Shown in pieces: positions 9,984 to 22,951 of a DNA stretch of 32,000 nt (within the stretch, counting starts at the first letter, position 1; the number at the start of each line of letters is the position of its first letter). The stretch comes from Thermus thalpophilus (GTDB taxonomy: Bacteria > Deinococcota > Deinococci > Deinococcales > Thermaceae). Both the position numbers and the translations under genes were made by a program. The stretch covers positions 317-32,316 of the forward strand of contig NZ_JAKTNS010000020.1 in assembly GCF_022760915.1 (NCBI RefSeq). The letters are read 5' to 3'. The notes beneath the pieces were generated by a model, which was given only the letters and a program-made list of their open reading frames with translations, searched no databases and had not been told where the DNA came from.

Positions 9984-11185
9984 TGTATCTTCTCCACGTG
10001 AGGGAGGCGCCGCCGCTTTGGTTGCCGGGCCACCACGCCCGCGGGATGGATCGGCGGCCACCCGCCCCGGCCTCCCTGCCGCACCGTATCCCGGTCTTCC
10101 ACGACCGCATCCACATGGACGGCACACGGGGTCGGGTGGCCACCTCCCTCACTCTACCAAAGGAGGCAAGGCATGGTCTTCGCAGGCATTGATGTCAGCA
10201 AGCCCCACCTGGACCTGGCCCTGGCTTCCCCCTCCGCCAAGCCCACCCGTCTCCGCTTCCCCAACACCGAGGAAGGCCGCCAAGCCCTCCTCTCCGCCCT
10301 CGCCCACCACCGCCCCGCCTGGGTCGCCCTGGAGCCCAGCAGCGTCTACCACCTCCCCCTCCTCCACCTCCTGGTGCAAAAGGGCTTCCCAGTGGCCCTG
10401 GTCAACCCCTACCACCTCGCCGCCTTCCGCAAGGCCATGGGGGAGCGCAACAAGACCGACCGCCAAGACGCCTTCCTCCTGGCCCGCTATGCCCTGGTTT
10501 ACCAGGAGGAACTCCGAGCCTACACCCCTCCCCCCCAGGCCCTCCAGGAGCTCAAGGCCCTGGTGGGGTACCAAGAGGACCTGGCCGCCCGGGAGCGGGC
10601 CATCCTGAACCCGCTGGAGGCGGCGGAGTGGGCGGGGAGCGAAGGGGTTATGGCCCTCCTCCAGAGGGAGCTGGCCTTGGTGCGGGAGCTCCTTGAGGAG
10701 GTGGAGGGAAGGATCCGGGGACTCCTGGAAACCATCCCTGAGTCCCGGGTCCTCATGGCCCTTCCTGGGGTGGGGCCCCAGGTGGCGGCGGCGGTGCTGG
10801 CCTTCCTCCCGCCCCACCTCTGGGGCCGGGCCAAGGCCGCGGCCTCCTACGCCGGCCTCATCCCGGAGCGGGAGGTGTCGGGGAAGGCGGTGGAGCGGAG
10901 CCGGCTTTCCAAGAAGGGGCCGCCCCTTTTGCGAAGGAAGCTGTACATGGCTGCTTTGGTGGCGGTGCGGCATGACCCGGAGATGCGGGCTTTTTACCAC
11001 CGCTTGCTTTCCCGGGGGAAGCGGAAGAAGCAGGCCCTTTTGGCCGTGGCCCACAAGCTTTTGCGGCGGATGATGGGACGGCTCAAAGCCTACCACGCCA
11101 GTCAGCTGGACCAGGTGGCTTGACAAGGAAGACCGTATCAATCCCCCAGGAATACTAGGACTGGTAAGGAAAAGCTAATCCTGAA
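9984..11185 (+). mobile_element. IS110-family insertion sequence (IS1000-like); boundaries approximate, within about 10 bp on the left, and the right end could be about 11140
   Basis: A single DEDD-type transposase ORF. About 190 nt of 5' non-coding sequence lies between the cas2 start and the ORF, and 17-62 nt of 3' non-coding sequence. No terminal inverted repeats are visible, as expected for IS110. GTCGCA is present at 9978-9983 and at 11186-11191. Confidence 0.7.
10173..11123 (+). CDS. IS110-family DEDD transposase / recombinase
   Basis: 316 aa, with AAGGAGG 8 nt upstream. Motifs: VFAGIDVSKPHL, WVALEPSSVYH, NKTDRQDA (DEDD motifs); C-terminal LPGVGPQVAAAVLA and SYAGLIPEREVSGK (Tnp domain). 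The 10149..11141 minus ORF is its shadow. Confidence 0.9.
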   Translation: MVFAGIDVSKPHLDLALASPSAKPTRLRFPNTEEGRQALLSALAHHRPAWVALEPSSVYHLPLLHLLVQKGFPVALVNPYHLAAFRKAMGERNKTDRQDAFLLARYALVYQEELRAYTPPPQALQELKALVGYQEDLAARERAILNPLEAAEWAGSEGVMALLQRELALVRELLEEVEGRIRGLLETIPESRVLMALPGVGPQVAAAVLAFLPPHLWGRAKAAASYAGLIPEREVSGKAVERSRLSKKGPPLLRRKLYMAALVAVRHDPEMRAFYHRLLSRGKRKKQALLAVAHKLLRRMMGRLKAYHASQLDQVA

Positions 11186-11531
11186 GTCGCAATCCCCTTA
11201 CGGGGAAGCATCTCGTGCAACCTACAAGGCCATTGACTGGGCCTTGAAGCAGTTTGTTTAGTCGCAATCCCCTTACGGGGAAGCATCTCGTGCAACGCCC
11301 CGGGGTAGACCTTCCCCGCGGCACGCTCGCCGAAGCGCGCGTCGCAATCCCCTTACGGGGAAGCATCTCGTGCAACCAGAGGGTTGACGAGCGGTTCGCC
11401 GAGTTCTTGAGGGACATGTCGCAATCCCCTTACGGGGAAGCATCTCGTGCAACTCCATCCAGCAGATACTGGGGCGCATGGAGAGTACGGCCCAGGTCGC
11501 AATCCCCTTACGGGGAAGCATCTCGTGCAAC
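11186..11531 (-). CRISPR. CRISPR array 1: five identical 36-bp repeats and four spacers (39, 44, 41 and 42 bp)
   Basis: Plus-strand repeat GTCGCAATCCCCTTACGGGGAAGCATCTCGTGCAAC at 11186, 11261, 11341, 11418 and 11496. Read on the minus strand it is GTTGCACGAGATGCTTCCCCGTAAGGGGATTGCGAC, with a CCCC/GGGG hairpin and the ATTGCGAC handle at its 3' end. The leader lies on the right. Confidence 0.95.
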
Positions 11532-11886
11532 TGTACCCCTCTCATAATCCCGTCCTGGACATCGCTCTTAGAGGGGGGGTTTGTGAGAAAGATGAAGTTT
11601 GGAATATACATAGGCCGTATAAAGGCCTTTTTTGAGGGTTTAGCTCGTCCGCAAGCCACTTGCGAAAGGGGCGATGAGAAAGTGAAAGCGCATATTCGCC
11701 TTCCCCAAGGGCAAAACTGGCTTTCAAGATCCCCCGTCCGAGCTTCGGACAAGGCCATTATAGCAGATGAGCGCAACGATGCACTCAGTACATACTGGCG
11801 ACAGAAAGAACCTTGCGGAGCTCACTGCACTATGAGAAAGTGTTAAGTGGACCTTCGCCCCGTAAAAATGCGAATATATGAAGCCG
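11532..11886 (-). promoter_or_regulatory. Leader of CRISPR array 1 (lower GC; about 235 bp is about 90% identical to the array 2 leader)
   Basis: 11534-11768 aligns with 18293-18527. It lies between the cas1 stop and the first repeat, and no coding frame is conserved between the two copies. Confidence 0.6.
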
Positions 11887-14226: not shown

Positions 14227-14821
14227 ACTCCCCGAGTCTTCCGATACCCAAGTCTTTGGAGAAGTTCTTACCAGACGCGCGAAGACCAGGGCCATCGGCT
14301 TCTAGTCTGGACCATCTTCAATGTTGGCGCTGCTGTTGTTGATACCTTAAAAGTCTATAACCCCAAATACATTGATGATCAACAACAAGGAGCCCCCCCG
14401 CCCCGGCCGGGGTGCCGTCCAGGACGCAAGTGGGGGTGCGAAACTCCCCAAGTCTTCCGATAGAACTCCCCAAGTCTTCCGATACCAACTCCCCAAGTCT
14501 TCCGATACTTCGCTCCCAAAACTCCCCAAGTCTTCCGATAGCGATTCCCCAAGTCTTCCGATACCAACTCCCCAAGTCTTCCGATACTTCGCTCCCAAAA
14601 CTCCCCAAGTCTTCCGATAGCGATTCCCCAAGTCTTCCGATACCAACTCCCCAAGTCTTCCGATACTTCGCTCCCAAAACTCCCCAAGTCTTCCGATACT
14701 GGAGCGGGCCAACTCCCCAAGTCTTCCGATACCCGGGCCGAGGGGAAATGTTGCCTTCGTGAAGGGGAAAGGGCGGGGTTTTGCTCCCCGCCCCCGTTCA
14801 AACTCCCCAAGTCTTCCGATA
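14227..14821. repeat. Iteron field: 13 direct copies of the 20-bp motif A(C/T)TCCCC(A/G)AGTCTTCCGATA
   Basis: Copies start at 14227, 14443, 14465, 14488, 14521, 14544, 14567, 14600, 14623, 14646, 14679, 14712 and 14802. Spacings are 22/23 and 33 bp. 14521-14599 and 14600-14678 are identical 79-bp units. The last copy ends 3 nt from the rep stop codon. Confidence 0.85.
14320..14392. other. A+T-rich patch, a candidate DNA unwinding element of the plasmid origin
   Basis: The lowest-GC stretch in this region (...ttgataccttaaaagtctataaccccaaatacattgatgatcaacaac...). A 10-bp inverted repeat, TGTTGTTGAT (14334-14343) and ATCAACAACA (14378-14387), brackets it. Iterons lie on both sides. Confidence 0.55.
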
Positions 14822-17656: not shown

Positions 17657-17717
17657 GCCATGGTCCACTACGTTGCCCTCTTGGGCAACGAGCCCGCTCC
17701 CGCCTACATCGGCCTCG

Positions 17718-18290
17718 GTAGCAATCCCCCTGCGGGGAAGCATCTCGTGCAACTTCCCACATGCTCGGGCAGTTGCCAGTAAAGACTGGACTTGTAGCAA
17801 TCCCCTTACGGGGAAGCATCTCGTGCAACGTTTAATCCTACGCCCCCTTGGGGGGCTCAATTCAAGGCTATGTAGCAATCCCCTTACGGGGAAGCATCTC
17901 GTGCAACTTCCAAATAAGTGTGAGAATTGTCGTAATACCACTACTTGGGAGTAGCAATCCCCTTACGGGGAAGCATCTCGTGCAACTTGGAGGATATTCG
18001 GGCTGGTCGCGGTCTTCCATTTACGGAGTCGCAATCCCCTTACGGGGAAGCATCTCGTGCAACCCGTAACCCTCCTGACGGTAGAGGAGCTGGAGTCTGT
18101 GCGGGTAGCAATCCCCTTACGGGGAAGCATCTCGTGCAACTTTGTTGACCGGTTCCCGCATGCTCGTGTCTTGGCGGGGTAGCAATCCCCTTACGGGGAA
18201 GCATCTCGTGCAACCATCGTGGCGGGGCCCGATGGTGAGCCCCTCCGGCCCATCGTAGCAATCCCCTTACGGGGAAGCATCTCGTGCAAC
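17718..18290 (-). CRISPR. CRISPR array 2: eight 36-bp repeats and seven spacers (40, 42, 43, 41, 41, 38 and 40 bp)
   Basis: Repeats at 17718, 17794, 17872, 17951, 18028, 18105, 18179 and 18255. The consensus is GTAGCAATCCCCTTACGGGGAAGCATCTCGTGCAAC on the plus strand. The 17718 copy is degenerate (CCCCCTGCGGGG), marking the leader-distal end. The 18028 copy has GTCGC like array 1. Confidence 0.95.
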
Positions 18291-18690
18291 AGCACCCCTC
18301 TCATAATCTCGTCCTGGACGTTGGTCTTGGAGGGGGGGTTTGTGAGAAAGATGAAGTTTGGAATATGCATAAGCCGTATAAAGGCCGTTTTTGGGGGTTT
18401 AGCCCGATGAAAACTTACTTGCGGAAGGGGCGATGAGAAGGTGAAAGCGCATATTCGCCTTCCTCAAGGGCAAAACTGGCTTTCAAGATCCCCTGTCCGA
18501 CCCTCGGACAAGGCCATTATAGCAGATGACAGCAAGCATAATCTGAGTACAGGTTTAGCGCAACAGTGCCCTTGCAGACATCGCTTCACTATAAAAAAGT
18601 GATAAACGGGCCAGTTGCATCGCAAAAAGGCTAATAGTGGAAGCAACTACCGTGCCCGTAAGTAAAAGGGTGTGTAAGCCATCGCCCCGG
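18291..18690 (-). promoter_or_regulatory. Leader of CRISPR array 2
   Basis: Lower-GC non-coding stretch. 18293-18527 is about 90% identical to the array 1 leader, and weaker similarity continues (cactataaaaaagtgataaacgg versus cactatgagaaagtgttaagtgg). Confidence 0.6.
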
Positions 18691-20592: not shown

Positions 20593-20966
20593 TCAGACCT
20601 CCAGGGTCTCGGGCGGGGGCTCCGCCAGGACCCCCGAGAGGACCCGCCTTGCCGCCTCCTCCGGGGCGAGCGCCCCCTTGGGCGGGCCCCCTAAGGGGGC
20701 CCAGAGCCCCGTGGCCACGGCGGGAAGCCGCACCAGGACCAGGTGCACCCCCTCCCGCCGAAGCTCCCGCCTCGCCGCCCCCAGGTAGGCCTCCAGGGCC
20801 CCCTTGGCGGCGGCGTAAGCGGCGAAGCCCGGCACCTGGACGTACGGGGGGTACGCCCCGAAGAAGACGGCCCGCGCCCCGGGGCGGAAGCGGGCGTACT
20901 TTAGGGCTTGGTGGGCGGTGAGGAGGTGGGCGGCGAGCATCCCCTCCAGGAGGTGCAAACAGTTGA
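20593..20966 (-). pseudogene. Short-chain dehydrogenase/reductase, C-terminal fragment (gene split by the TnpB element)
   Basis: ...CLHLLEGMLAAHLLTAHQ...FAAYAAAKGALEAYL (YxxxK catalytic motif). It joins in frame to 22679..22951 when 20962-22678 is removed. Confidence 0.8.
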
Positions 20967-22678
20967 GCAATAACAGCTTTGGGCTACAATAGCCCTCAGA
21001 TGCCCCCGCTTCTCCTTACAGCCCATCAGGTCAGGGAGCGCCACGGCGTTCACCACGACACTCCGCGCGCCTGGGAAAGGCATAAGGTTTCCCGCTTCGC
21101 CGTGCGGACGCGCGCCAGGAGGCGGAAGGATGCCCAAGGACAAGACCGCTAGCTTCCGAGGCGTCCAGGCCAAGCTCCGTTTCTCCTCCCAGGAGGACCG
21201 GAAAGCCCTCCTGGACCTCATGCGGAGGTTCTCCTCCGCCACCAGGTTCGCCTACCAGAGACTCTTGGAGGGGTACAGTCGCAAGGAACTCAAACGGGAA
21301 GACGGCCCCCTCTGCCAGCTCTTCCGCCTCAACACCCGCTACGTTGACGACGTTATCCTCAAGGCGCAAGGAGTCCTGGACTCCGCCAGGGAGCGCGGTG
21401 TAGACCCCCGCAAGGTGGTCTTCGGGGGAAGGGGCCTCTTTGAGCAACTCAAACGCAAGCACCTCTCGGGTAAGCGCCTCCTCCAACTGAAGCGGGAATG
21501 GCGGGAGAAGCGCCAAGGTTTGCTCTACTCTAGGGGAGACCGGAGCAAGGGGGGCAACCTCAACCTGCGGCTGGAGGTGGAAAACGGAGCCTTGTGGCTC
21601 CGAATCAATCTAGGACACCGCACTTACATCAAAGCCTTCGTCCTCTCTTCCCACCCTCAGGTGGAAGCCCTGGTGGAGCGGGTGTACCTTTCCGAGCCCT
21701 ACAACGTGGAGCTCAATCTCCGGAACGGAGAAATCCACGCCCACTTCACGTGGCACGAGGCGCTACCCTTGGTGGTGGCCACCCAGGAAAATGGAGTCCT
21801 CGCCCTGGACGCCAACGCCCACCCCCACCACCTGGCCTTAGCGTTGGTCAGTCCTGATGGGGAACTCAAGCATCACTTCACCATCCCCTTGGACGAGGTG
21901 GACAGGGCCCCCAACCGTGGAGCCAAGGAAATCGTCCTCTGGAGGGTGGCCCACCAGGTGGTGGACTTCGCCCTCTCCCAGGGCGTAGCCATCGCCACCG
22001 AGAGGCTCAAACACCTCCGGAAGTCCAGGAGAGGAGATGGTTCGGGAAGGCGGTTCCGGAGGAAGCAACACCGCTTCGCCTACGCCTCCCTCCTCCGGAA
22101 GGTCCACACCCTGGCGAGGAAAAAGGGTGTCCAGGTGCTGGAGGTGAACCCCCAAGACACCTCCACCATCGGGATGCTCAAGTATGCCCCCCTGCTTTCC
22201 CTCTCCAAGGACACCGCCGCCGCTTACGTGATCGGGAGGAAAGCCTTAGGTTTCACCGAAAAGCTTCCCCAGGGTTACCAGCGCCTGTTGGAGGATCAGG
22301 CTTTCCAAATCGAGACCCAAGCCTTCTACGAGGAGTTGCAGACAGAGCTACAAAGACGAAAGGGAGGTGAGAACAATCCGTATCTGAAGAGGCGCATTGC
22401 AAGAGACATCGGTAAGGCGAAGCGAGCTTTAGGTCTTCTGTCAAGCCTTCGGAGCTCGTCAGGGAGCCAGCGGGGGTCAACCGAGGGAAGGAACCCTCCT
22501 GGCGCTAATCCCTGGCGGGTTCTGAGGGTAGGCCTCTTTCTTCCCCTCCTTGGGCGGGAGGTGCCGAGGGACCTCTCTCCCCTCAAGCCCATCCTCCTTG
22601 GGGGATCGTGGGAGGGGGGAAAGGTCAGGCTTAGGTCCTCATCCTGGTGGAGGGCCCAAAGCGCTAATGTGCGCTTTG
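20962..22678 (+). mobile_element. 1717-bp tnpA-less IS200/IS605-like (IS1341-type) element carrying a TnpB-like gene
   Basis: Bounded by GTTGA at 20962-20966 and 22679-22683. Subterminal hairpins GGGCT-acaat-AGCCC (20981-20995) and CCAAAGCGC-taatgt-GCGCTTTGG (22655-22679). Precise removal restores the SDR reading frame. Confidence 0.65.
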
Positions 22679-22683
22679 GTTGA
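21130..22683 (+). CDS. tnpB: TnpB-like RuvC-fold protein (a putative RNA-guided nuclease relative) lacking the zinc ribbon
   Basis: 517 aa, with AGGAGG upstream. Split RuvC motifs: NGVLALDANAHPHH (D), GVAIATERLKHLRK (E), VLEVNPQDTSTIG...SKDTAAAYVIGRKALG (D). No Cys pairs occur anywhere after RuvC-II. The 3' third has atypical codons, and its stop lies in the terminal GTTGA. Confidence 0.75.
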   Translation: MPKDKTASFRGVQAKLRFSSQEDRKALLDLMRRFSSATRFAYQRLLEGYSRKELKREDGPLCQLFRLNTRYVDDVILKAQGVLDSARERGVDPRKVVFGGRGLFEQLKRKHLSGKRLLQLKREWREKRQGLLYSRGDRSKGGNLNLRLEVENGALWLRINLGHRTYIKAFVLSSHPQVEALVERVYLSEPYNVELNLRNGEIHAHFTWHEALPLVVATQENGVLALDANAHPHHLALALVSPDGELKHHFTIPLDEVDRAPNRGAKEIVLWRVAHQVVDFALSQGVAIATERLKHLRKSRRGDGSGRRFRRKQHRFAYASLLRKVHTLARKKGVQVLEVNPQDTSTIGMLKYAPLLSLSKDTAAAYVIGRKALGFTEKLPQGYQRLLEDQAFQIETQAFYEELQTELQRRKGGENNPYLKRRIARDIGKAKRALGLLSSLRSSSGSQRGSTEGRNPPGANPWRVLRVGLFLPLLGREVPRDLSPLKPILLGGSWEGGKVRLRSSSWWRAQSANVRFG

Positions 22684-22951
22684 CCAGGTCTCGCCCCAGT
22701 TCCCGCACGGGGGCCCGCCCCGCCATCCCCACGGCGTGGAGGAGGAGGTCCAGGGGCCCAGCCTCCTCCAGGAGGGCTTGGGCCTCGAGGGGGTCTTCAA
22801 GGTCGGCGGGGAGGGCTTTGGCCCCAAGCTCCTCGGCGAGCTCCCGAAGCGCCCCCGCCCTCCGCCCGGAAAGGAGAAGCTCGTGGCCCTTCAGCGCACG
22901 CGCCAAAGCGCTTCCCAGGCCTCCCGTGGCGCCCAGCACCAAAACCCGCAT
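22679..22951 (-). pseudogene. Short-chain dehydrogenase/reductase, N-terminal fragment
   Basis: MRVLVLGATGGLGSALARAL (TGxxxGxG Rossmann motif)...LLLHAVGMAGRAPVRELGRDLVN. It then reads into the element end (QSAH*). Confidence 0.8.

Follow-up and report, generated by a model that had tools for sequence, protein, structure and literature searches.

A putative non-autonomous IS607-family element with a zinc-finger-less TnpB-like protein and a predicted omegaRNA interrupts an SDR gene of Thermus thalpophilus

Two of the described systems close to the locus reported here are an IS607-family element and a clade of TnpB proteins. In the IS607-family element CboIStron, experiments showed that transposase target and TnpB target-adjacent motif (TAM) are both TGGG, whereas the right end of the element finishes with TCGG (bioRxiv 10.1101/2023.11.20.567912). 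The TnpB clade RIIIr-4 was described as devoid of the C4 zinc finger and as carrying His at the RuvC-III position, and its authors took the conserved substitutions as a sign that activity has been kept (Altae-Tran et al. 2023, PMC10691335). The 529-aa ortholog 39 of Nocardiopsis, the one member of this clade sampled by Nety et al. (2023, PMC10278001), was found to process an omegaRNA of 466 nt in vitro. In a stretch of 32,000 nt from contig NZ_JAKTNS010000020.1 of Thermus thalpophilus (hereafter the window), we analysed an insertion of 1,735 bp (20954..22688, + strand) that interrupts a short-chain dehydrogenase/reductase (SDR) gene and encodes a TnpB-like protein of 517 aa. The insertion is probably a non-autonomous IS607 element with a TnpB-omegaRNA system.

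The element and its relatives share with IS607 of Helicobacter pylori and with CboIStron a serine recombinase with a MerR-type helix-turn-helix (MerR-HTH) upstream of tnpB in full-length copies, a GG core at both junctions without target duplication, a left-flank motif that differs from the right terminus by internal bases, and a structured RNA at the right end that overlaps the 3' end of tnpB. In contrast to these two elements, the TnpB belongs to a branch without zinc finger, a group I intron is missing, and the target is the 5-nt motif GGAGG. The window copy differs further in that tnpA is deleted and the open reading frame (ORF) stops only 5 nt short of the right terminus.

The limits of the insertion follow from uninterrupted alleles of the host gene. 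As the initial annotation had recognized, the SDR gene is split by the element, its 5' part lying at 22689..22951 and its 3' part at 20593..20953, both on the - strand. Joined, the two parts give a protein of 207 aa (..GRDLLEGML..) that matches the intact alleles (P0121, P0122), which are likewise 207 aa long, contain the same ..GRDLLEGML.. segment and show 97-98% identity as measured on a 206-aa test construct. The limits had been placed before at the pentamer GTTGA, which is indeed present at 20962-20966 and 22679-22683, and deletion of 20962-22678 had been proposed to restore an SDR of 213 aa. This product contains six residues too many (VNCLHL) compared with the intact alleles, and the proposed join keeps the frame only because 18 bp, a multiple of three, separate its deletion from the true one (1,735 versus 1,717). 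The empty-site DNA of three intact alleles (L012-L014) reads ...CCTCCAGGAGG|TCyCGCC..., with one GG, in disagreement with the single-GTTGA junction that had been predicted, an outcome named beforehand as refuting that prediction. Comparison of the occupied site, ..GGAGG|TGCAAAC...ACCAGG|T.., with the empty site, ..GGAGG|T.., revealed no target duplication. The DNA of the intact alleles, together with the GG core dinucleotide at the left (20952-20953) and right (22687-22688) junction, therefore defines the insertion as 20954-22688. It lies antisense to the SDR gene and apparently occurred recently. For the annotation of the window this result is mundane, namely an SDR gene knocked out by an insertion sequence (IS).

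The same limits are obtained from sequence conservation. For this comparison, 69 left ends and 66 right ends were taken from genomes and metagenomes; motif counts refer to 63 distinct insertion sites for the left flank and to 57 right ends. Conservation stops precisely at 20954 and 22688 and hence extends outward past the left GTTGA by 8 nt and past the right GTTGA by 5 nt (approximately 65 copies). The two pentamers thus represent conserved interior parts of the ends, and the recurrence of a 5-mer at a spacing of 1.7 kb is expected by chance. All compared copies start with GG|(T/C)GCAAACAG(C/T)TGA and finish with ...T(G/A)ACCAGG|, and their flanks are unrelated outside these bounds. The window element follows this layout with GGAGG|TGCAAACAGTTGA ... 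TTGACCAGG| and a GG core at both bounds. Its left terminal motif TGCAAACAGTTGA (20954..20966, +), which includes the left GTTGA, is kept in Thermus and Meiothermus copies, and its right terminal module (22657..22688, +) consists of a subterminal hairpin and ..TTGACCAGG with the stop codon TGA at 22681-22683. Directly 5' of the left end lies the host target motif GGAGG (20949..20953, +), the putative TAM, which is present in the uninterrupted SDR alleles. Each of the left-flank positions -5 to -1 shows the respective base of G/G/A/G/G in 57-61 of the 63 distinct sites; GG was found at 59-61 of the 63 left junctions and at all 57 right junctions, and ACCAGG at the right terminus in 57 of 57 cases.

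This terminus (..GTTTGGTTGACCAGG| or a close variant) remains nearly unchanged in Aquificota, Firmicutes and a metagenome-assembled genome (MAG) of Thermofilum, and Caldanaerobacter copies have kept the left terminus and its flank as well (GGAGG|TCAAAACAGTTGA). Across the loci L097-L104 from Caldanaerobacter, Sulfurihydrogenibium, Caldicellulosiruptor and the Thermofilum MAG, that is, three bacterial phyla and one archaeal MAG, the right terminus is near-constant despite proteins that are only 39-47% identical to the window protein.

The type of the element was deduced from its longer relatives. In copies of 2.2 kb (L002, L003, L022 and others), tnpB is preceded by a gene for 214 aa that overlaps the tnpB start, and the product of this gene in L002 contains a Resolvase domain (1.5e-23) and a MerR/HTH_17 domain. 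The tnpA-tnpB pair is also found in Caldanaerobacter and Caldicellulosiruptor, and a TnpA of the MerR-HTH serine recombinase type is encoded in L002, L097, L098 and L103. No Y1 gene adjoins any examined copy; the partner is the resolvase-type gene. According to an alignment with L002 and L022, approximately 490 bp of tnpA were deleted in frame in the window copy, leaving a remnant of about 50 codons (21000..21152, +) that joins some 28 codons from the start of the gene (MPPLLLTAHQVRERHGV...) in frame with some 15 from its end (..SRFAVRTRARRRK). The earlier statement that the element lacks a tnpA gene is thus borne out, with the remnant as the only trace. The same deletion is present in copy L001 of Meiothermus luteus, which is inserted at a different site and shows 85% amino acid identity. 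The occurrence of one deletion at separate sites indicates that the deleted form has propagated, presumably by mobilization in trans, and 44 of the 51 copies having both ends are devoid of tnpA.

Serine-recombinase architecture, GG core and absence of target duplication are hallmarks of IS607, and judged from these sequence features the element is a non-autonomous member of the IS607 family and not of IS200/IS605. The peel-and-paste type implied by the initial annotation has to be abandoned given the IS607 serine recombinase of the relatives, the GG cores and the GGAGG flank. The element resembles IS1341-type solo-tnpB elements in that tnpB stands alone between functional-looking ends, which is the commonest form of the family, but its ends and target are of the serine-recombinase type rather than the Y1 type, and a tnpA remnant is visible.

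The tnpB-like gene (21130..22683, +) encodes 517 aa with the motifs GVLALDAN, IATERL and SKDTAAAYVIG, as had been noted, and the catalytic triad is ordered D...E...D: RuvC-I D227 (21808-21810), RuvC-II E291 (22000-22002) and RuvC-III D361 (22210-22212). These three residues are invariant among 41 relatives with 39-85% identity. The reported lack of CxxC pairs was confirmed; C62 is the lone Cys, and the zinc-ribbon/TNB module is absent here as well as across the family. The spacer from TSTIG to SKD comprises 14 residues, approximately 14 also in relatives, without any Cys between RuvC-II and RuvC-III. A Pfam scan of the protein, using a copy of the database that predates PF27229, yielded no match, including OrfB_IS605, PF07282, Cas12f1-like_TNB and HTH_OrfB_IS605. 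Two NCBIfam models exceeded their cutoffs, TIGR01765 (N-terminal domain) with 65.6 bits and TIGR01766 ("TnpB-related") with 45.8 bits; sub-threshold matches to Cas12f2 and guided_TnpB fall on residues 266-351, where TIGR01766 also aligns. With phmmer against PDB sequences, one marginal match to Cas12f1 was obtained (E 0.59), and hhalign of the family profile with one canonical TnpB aligned the RuvC-I strand only, placing the D227 strand on GIDLG with a probability of 5%.

The predicted structure agrees with the profile matches. An AlphaFold model built on the alignment of the relatives reached a mean predicted local distance difference test (pLDDT) score of 82, with confident helices at 381-442 and 461-474 and a disordered stretch at 443-457. 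All of the top 27 PDB matches in Foldseek were Cas12f, Cas12k, Cas12g, TranC or TnpB, with E values down to 1e-10; for Cas12f, Cas12k and the TnpB proteins of ISDra2 and ISFba1 the probability was 1.0 and the template modelling (TM) score 0.44-0.54 over about 460 columns. According to these models, the protein is TnpB/Cas12-like with a WED-REC-RuvC fold without the TNB zinc finger, which corroborates the earlier assignment. It shares fold and order of RuvC-I, -II and -III with canonical TnpB (ISDra2, ISFba1) and Cas12f, but is devoid of the TNB zinc ribbon and contains an additional C-terminal helical hairpin (381-442) and a W462/RDLSPLK module.

Thermus and Meiothermus contain more than 1,000 homologues with lengths of 517-528 aa, named "IS200/IS605 family accessory protein TnpB-related protein" by NCBI. 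An exhaustive search and a profile search widened the family, for which the database lists a precomputed PF27229 (SSO2105_N) assignment, to Aquificota, Thermoanaerobacterales, Caldicellulosiruptor and the Thermofilum MAG; it is thus distributed among thermophiles. The window protein shows 27% identity over 245 aa to Nocardiopsis ortholog 39 (BLASTP, E 2e-4), which itself has His at RuvC-III and no Cys in the RuvC-II/III spacer. This pairwise homology to one named member suggests a relationship of the family to RIIIr-4, with which it also has in common a length of about 520 aa, the missing C4 zinc finger and a long omegaRNA, in the window element a predicted one. Distant members of the window family (P0252, P0257, P0298 and others) likewise have His in place of D361, whereas Asp (K360-D361) is kept in the window protein and in its Thermus, Aquificota and Thermoanaerobacterales relatives. 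A TnpB without zinc finger, which had been regarded as unusual, was thus already known as a major clade in 2023 (PMC10691335). The branch is catalogued but under-studied, and the window element is an ordinary member of it; reports of DNA cleavage by the RIIIr-4 clade were not found in the literature.

In TnpB and Cas12f, the TNB/zinc-finger domain is responsible for substrate loading at the RuvC site. The main doubt concerns the question whether a TnpB devoid of TNB cuts double-stranded DNA. The protein might have become an RNA-guided DNA binder or regulator, comparable to TldR or Cas12k, or might cut only RNA or single-stranded DNA after loss of TNB. The missing zinc finger in every member, the His in distant members (see also PMC10691335) and the fact that nuclease-inactive Cas12k scores about as well as TnpB in the fold matches are in line with this view. 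We consider it unlikely given the invariant D227, E291 and D361 and the multicopy, mobile gene that resides inside transposon ends with a sharp guide boundary typical of homing TnpBs; the RIIIr-4 authors also argue for kept activity (PMC10691335). TldR proteins are likewise TnpB derivatives lacking part of the nuclease lobe, but the window protein has an intact triad, is multicopy within transposon ends and is unlinked to a regulated host gene. A nuclease thus remains the preferred interpretation. Tentatively, this thermophile-wide family may represent an active, thermostable RNA-guided DNA endonuclease without TNB, in which loading could be taken over by the conserved C-terminal module (W462...RDLSPLK...GxW) and/or by the omegaRNA, which with about 285 nt is unusually long and lies nearly completely within the ORF, although this proposal is more doubtful than the reading as a whole.

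Upstream of tnpB, the left end contains a sigma-70-like promoter motif directed inward (20963..20990, +), consisting of TTGAGC, a 16-nt spacer and TACAAT. It is the sole such site in 20900-22800, where 0.1 would be expected, and Caldanaerobacter copies have an equivalent promoter (TTGAAA...TATAAT). The left GTTGA forms part of the TTGAGC box, and the right one contains the stop codon. Of the terminal structures reported before, the hairpin of 9 bp was confirmed at 22655-22679. The left one, GGGCT/AGCCC, shares bases with the -10 box TACAAT and is not conserved among the other copies. This left hairpin and the GCTTTGG common to both ends are confined to the lineage of the window copy and L001, for which reason they were rejected as family features.

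The right end is formed by a predicted omegaRNA scaffold (22404..22688, +). RNAalifold applied to the last 300 nt of 57 copies predicted 83 pairs in 13 helices: H1-H2 (22404-22441), a long hairpin H3-H6 (22445-22529), H7-H11 (22531-22631), H12 (22634-22656) and H13 (22657-22677), followed by an 11-nt tail (22678-22688). In this alignment 97% of cells are paired, compensatory changes occur at 25 pairs versus 9-16 in slid controls, and the covariation score amounts to 0.254 versus 0.07-0.11 in slid controls; none of 500 shuffles matched the observed values. The window copy retains 77 of the 83 pairs, and its lone-sequence fold has a z of -4.4. Only 11 nt separate the final hairpin from the end of the scaffold, and a subterminal hairpin of this kind has been reported for nearly all omegaRNAs. 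A covariance model of H3-H6 matched the homologous place in other lineages, namely Caldanaerobacter with E values of 7e-7 to 8e-6 (28 of 30 pairs kept in one AT-rich copy), Caldicellulosiruptor with 1e-3 and, more weakly, Sulfurihydrogenibium and Thermofilum; it did not match the canonical IS607 element of plasmid pVV8. An Rfam scan gave no match to the scaffold and only chance miRNA-like matches elsewhere. RNAalifold and the covariance model thus support the initial proposal that the 3' part of the ORF overlaps a structured RNA. The last ~285 nt of the element fold in silico into a series of conserved hairpins, and the RNA terminates where the element does, as would be expected of an omegaRNA (reRNA).

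The overlap of RNA and protein information was resolved by codon-position entropy computed over the 57 copies. The earlier observation of a decreasing GC content at third codon positions holds, with a drop from approximately 0.8 to 0.54-0.72 over the last ~120 codons. Up to about residue 375, strong third-position variation indicates a coding signature, followed by a variable linker at 381-410. At residues 431-460 all three codon positions are conserved; the coding signature returns at 461-480 (W462, RDLSPLK), where motifs persist at 25-30% identity, and is absent at 491-517. Within the disordered stretch 443-457, which is covered by H3-H6, third codon positions vary hardly more than the other two, and we therefore argue that conservation acts here at the RNA level. 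Protein selection on the overlapping coding sequence reaches to about residue 495. The ORF stops 141 nt before the element end in Caldanaerobacter and 43 nt before it in Sulfurihydrogenibium, and within TTGACCAGG in Thermus, Caldicellulosiruptor and Thermofilum. For the last ~25 codons of the window gene, translation that continues into the right end and is tolerated there appears the best interpretation. The claim that the last ~110 codons are mainly RNA therefore holds for about the last 25 codons and fails for residues 461-495, with their coding signature and motifs.

Some copies deviate from the scaffold described above. In columns 19-56 and 230-247 of alignment A4 (~22404-22441 and ~22597), subsets of copies vary the first hairpin with the frame preserved; one alternative, GCTTTCCTGGCCCC-CAAA-GGGGCCAGAAAGC, forms a stem of 14 bp without mismatches, of which compensatory variants occur. 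Other copies contain an insertion of 27-30 nt (AAACCTAGCTTCGCTGACA..) within the ORF, again preserving the frame.

The last ~45 nt of the element are common to the canonical tnpA and tnpB containing IS607 element of pVV8, which has a TnpA with 47% identity and a TnpB that is unrelated in sequence; a BLASTP similarity between the window protein and this TnpB was not found. Since the right end is also used by an element with an unrelated TnpB, it probably serves the transposase too, acting as TnpA recognition site as well as omegaRNA 3' hairpin. The pVV8 element of T. thermophilus HB8 (L015 863-907, L096) encodes a TnpA of 186 aa and a TnpB of 421 aa, the latter containing the domains OrfB_IS605 and TNB; the right end ..GGAGGGCCGGGGTGCGCTAATGTGCACTTTGGTTGACCAGG of this element carries the ~45 nt of the zinc-finger-less family, the left end differs, and two unrelated TnpB types thus use one right-end module.

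This sharing would also be expected if the 3' region were no guide-RNA scaffold at all and reflected right-end transposase sites together with C-terminal protein constraint, the helices being incidental. Protein selection on residues 461-495 and the confident AlphaFold helices at 381-442 and 461-474 fit such an explanation. We regard it as quite improbable: the TnpA_S of the one tested IS607 element needs only ~60 bp of right end, but paired covariation well above slid controls extends over ~285 nt, H3-H6 covers the disordered residues 443-457 with their conserved third positions, and compensatory changes preserve its pairing in Firmicutes.

If the 3' region is an omegaRNA scaffold, as we prefer, a tnpB transcript that starts at the left-end promoter and runs across the right end would give rise to an omegaRNA with a scaffold at 22404-22688 and a guide from 22689. 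By analogy with TnpB of IS607 and IS605 and given such transcription, the right flank (22689..22708, +; TCTCGCCCCAGTTCCCGCAC) is readable as a guide, and conservation falls sharply right after CCAGG in all copies. The TnpB-omegaRNA complex would recognise GGAGG as TAM, followed by a sequence matching the guide, in the joint GGAGG|TCTCGCC... that excision leaves at the donor site. It would cut this joint, and recombination would restore the element. The right end CCAGG| of the element itself would escape cleavage by differing from the TAM at positions -4 and -5, and GGAGG versus CCAGG is a direct analogue of TGGG versus TCGG in CboIStron. Mobility of the window copy would need TnpA_S in trans. 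The initial annotation had assumed a GTTGA TAM, in place of which GG cores and the GGAGG left-flank motif were found, and a guide starting at 22684 with CCAGG; these are the invariant last five bases of the element. The corresponding alternative, an IS200/IS605-type (IS1341-like) element of 1,717 bp inserted 3' of a GTTGA target, with GTTGA as bounds and TAM and a guide from CCAGG, would account for GTTGA at both spots, the maintained SDR frame and the many tnpA-less copies, but its probability is negligible, as it is already refuted by intact alleles with GGAGG|T at the joint and without the six extra residues, by the conservation beyond both pentamers and by a serine recombinase instead of Y1 as partner.

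Several points weigh against the proposed TnpB-omegaRNA system. The structure was counted on the alignment from which it was derived, and apparent conservation is inflated by the overlap of the RNA with coding sequence. The last ~45 nt occur beside another TnpB and may serve TnpA rather than TnpB, and GGAGG could reflect target choice by TnpA alone. Neither Pfam OrfB_IS605 nor Cas12f1-like_TNB matches the protein, its score of 37.9 bits with NF040570 (guided_TnpB) is under the cutoff of 100, and the absence of the TNB domain implies that DNA cleavage may be weak, altered or lost. A full-length copy was not seen within the window.

If members of this branch are active, a Cas12/TnpB nuclease would be workable without zinc-ribbon TNB domain, and RNA-guided enzymes that are naturally thermostable, poor in cysteine and specific for a G-rich TAM of 5 nt would become available. 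The set of copies represents ready comparative data with exact ends, a TAM logo of 63 sites and a covariation-supported RNA structure kept from Thermus to Firmicutes and an archaeal MAG.

The target motif GGAGG is identical to the core of the Shine-Dalgarno sequence, and under the tentative endonuclease proposal the element would preferentially home between ribosome-binding sites (RBS) and start codons. An ATG or GTG opening a long ORF lies 3-11 nt past the right end in 10 of 47 distinct insertions versus 5.6% in the control (L002, L017, L025, L031, L032, L038, L042, L043, L057 and L077). The position of the start codon just 3' of the right end indicates that the element often resides between host RBS and start codon in the orientation of the gene; in insertions at the RBS, ..CCAGG remains as a partial substitute. 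The ribosome-binding region of tnpB itself also holds GGAGG (21113-21117, CAGGAGGCGGAAGGATG), which makes it a possible target for nested insertion by an element of the same family.

Elsewhere in the window, two CRISPR arrays with the repeat GT(C/A)GCAATCCCCTTACGGGGAAGCATCTCGTGCAAC at a spacing of 74-80 nt are located at 11169-11531 (at least 5 repeats) and 17701-18290 (at least 8 repeats). Adjoining them are 297-nt sequences (11496-11792 and 18255-18551) that are 88% identical and probably represent the leader. Matches resembling the right end at 11685 and 18444 lie in these leader repeats and were taken as chance. The distance between the IS element and the end of the nearer array is about 2.7 kb, and a functional link was not seen. 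A tandem array of 23/33-nt units with TCCCCAAGTCTTCCGATA, in at least 8 copies, occupies 14467-14736.

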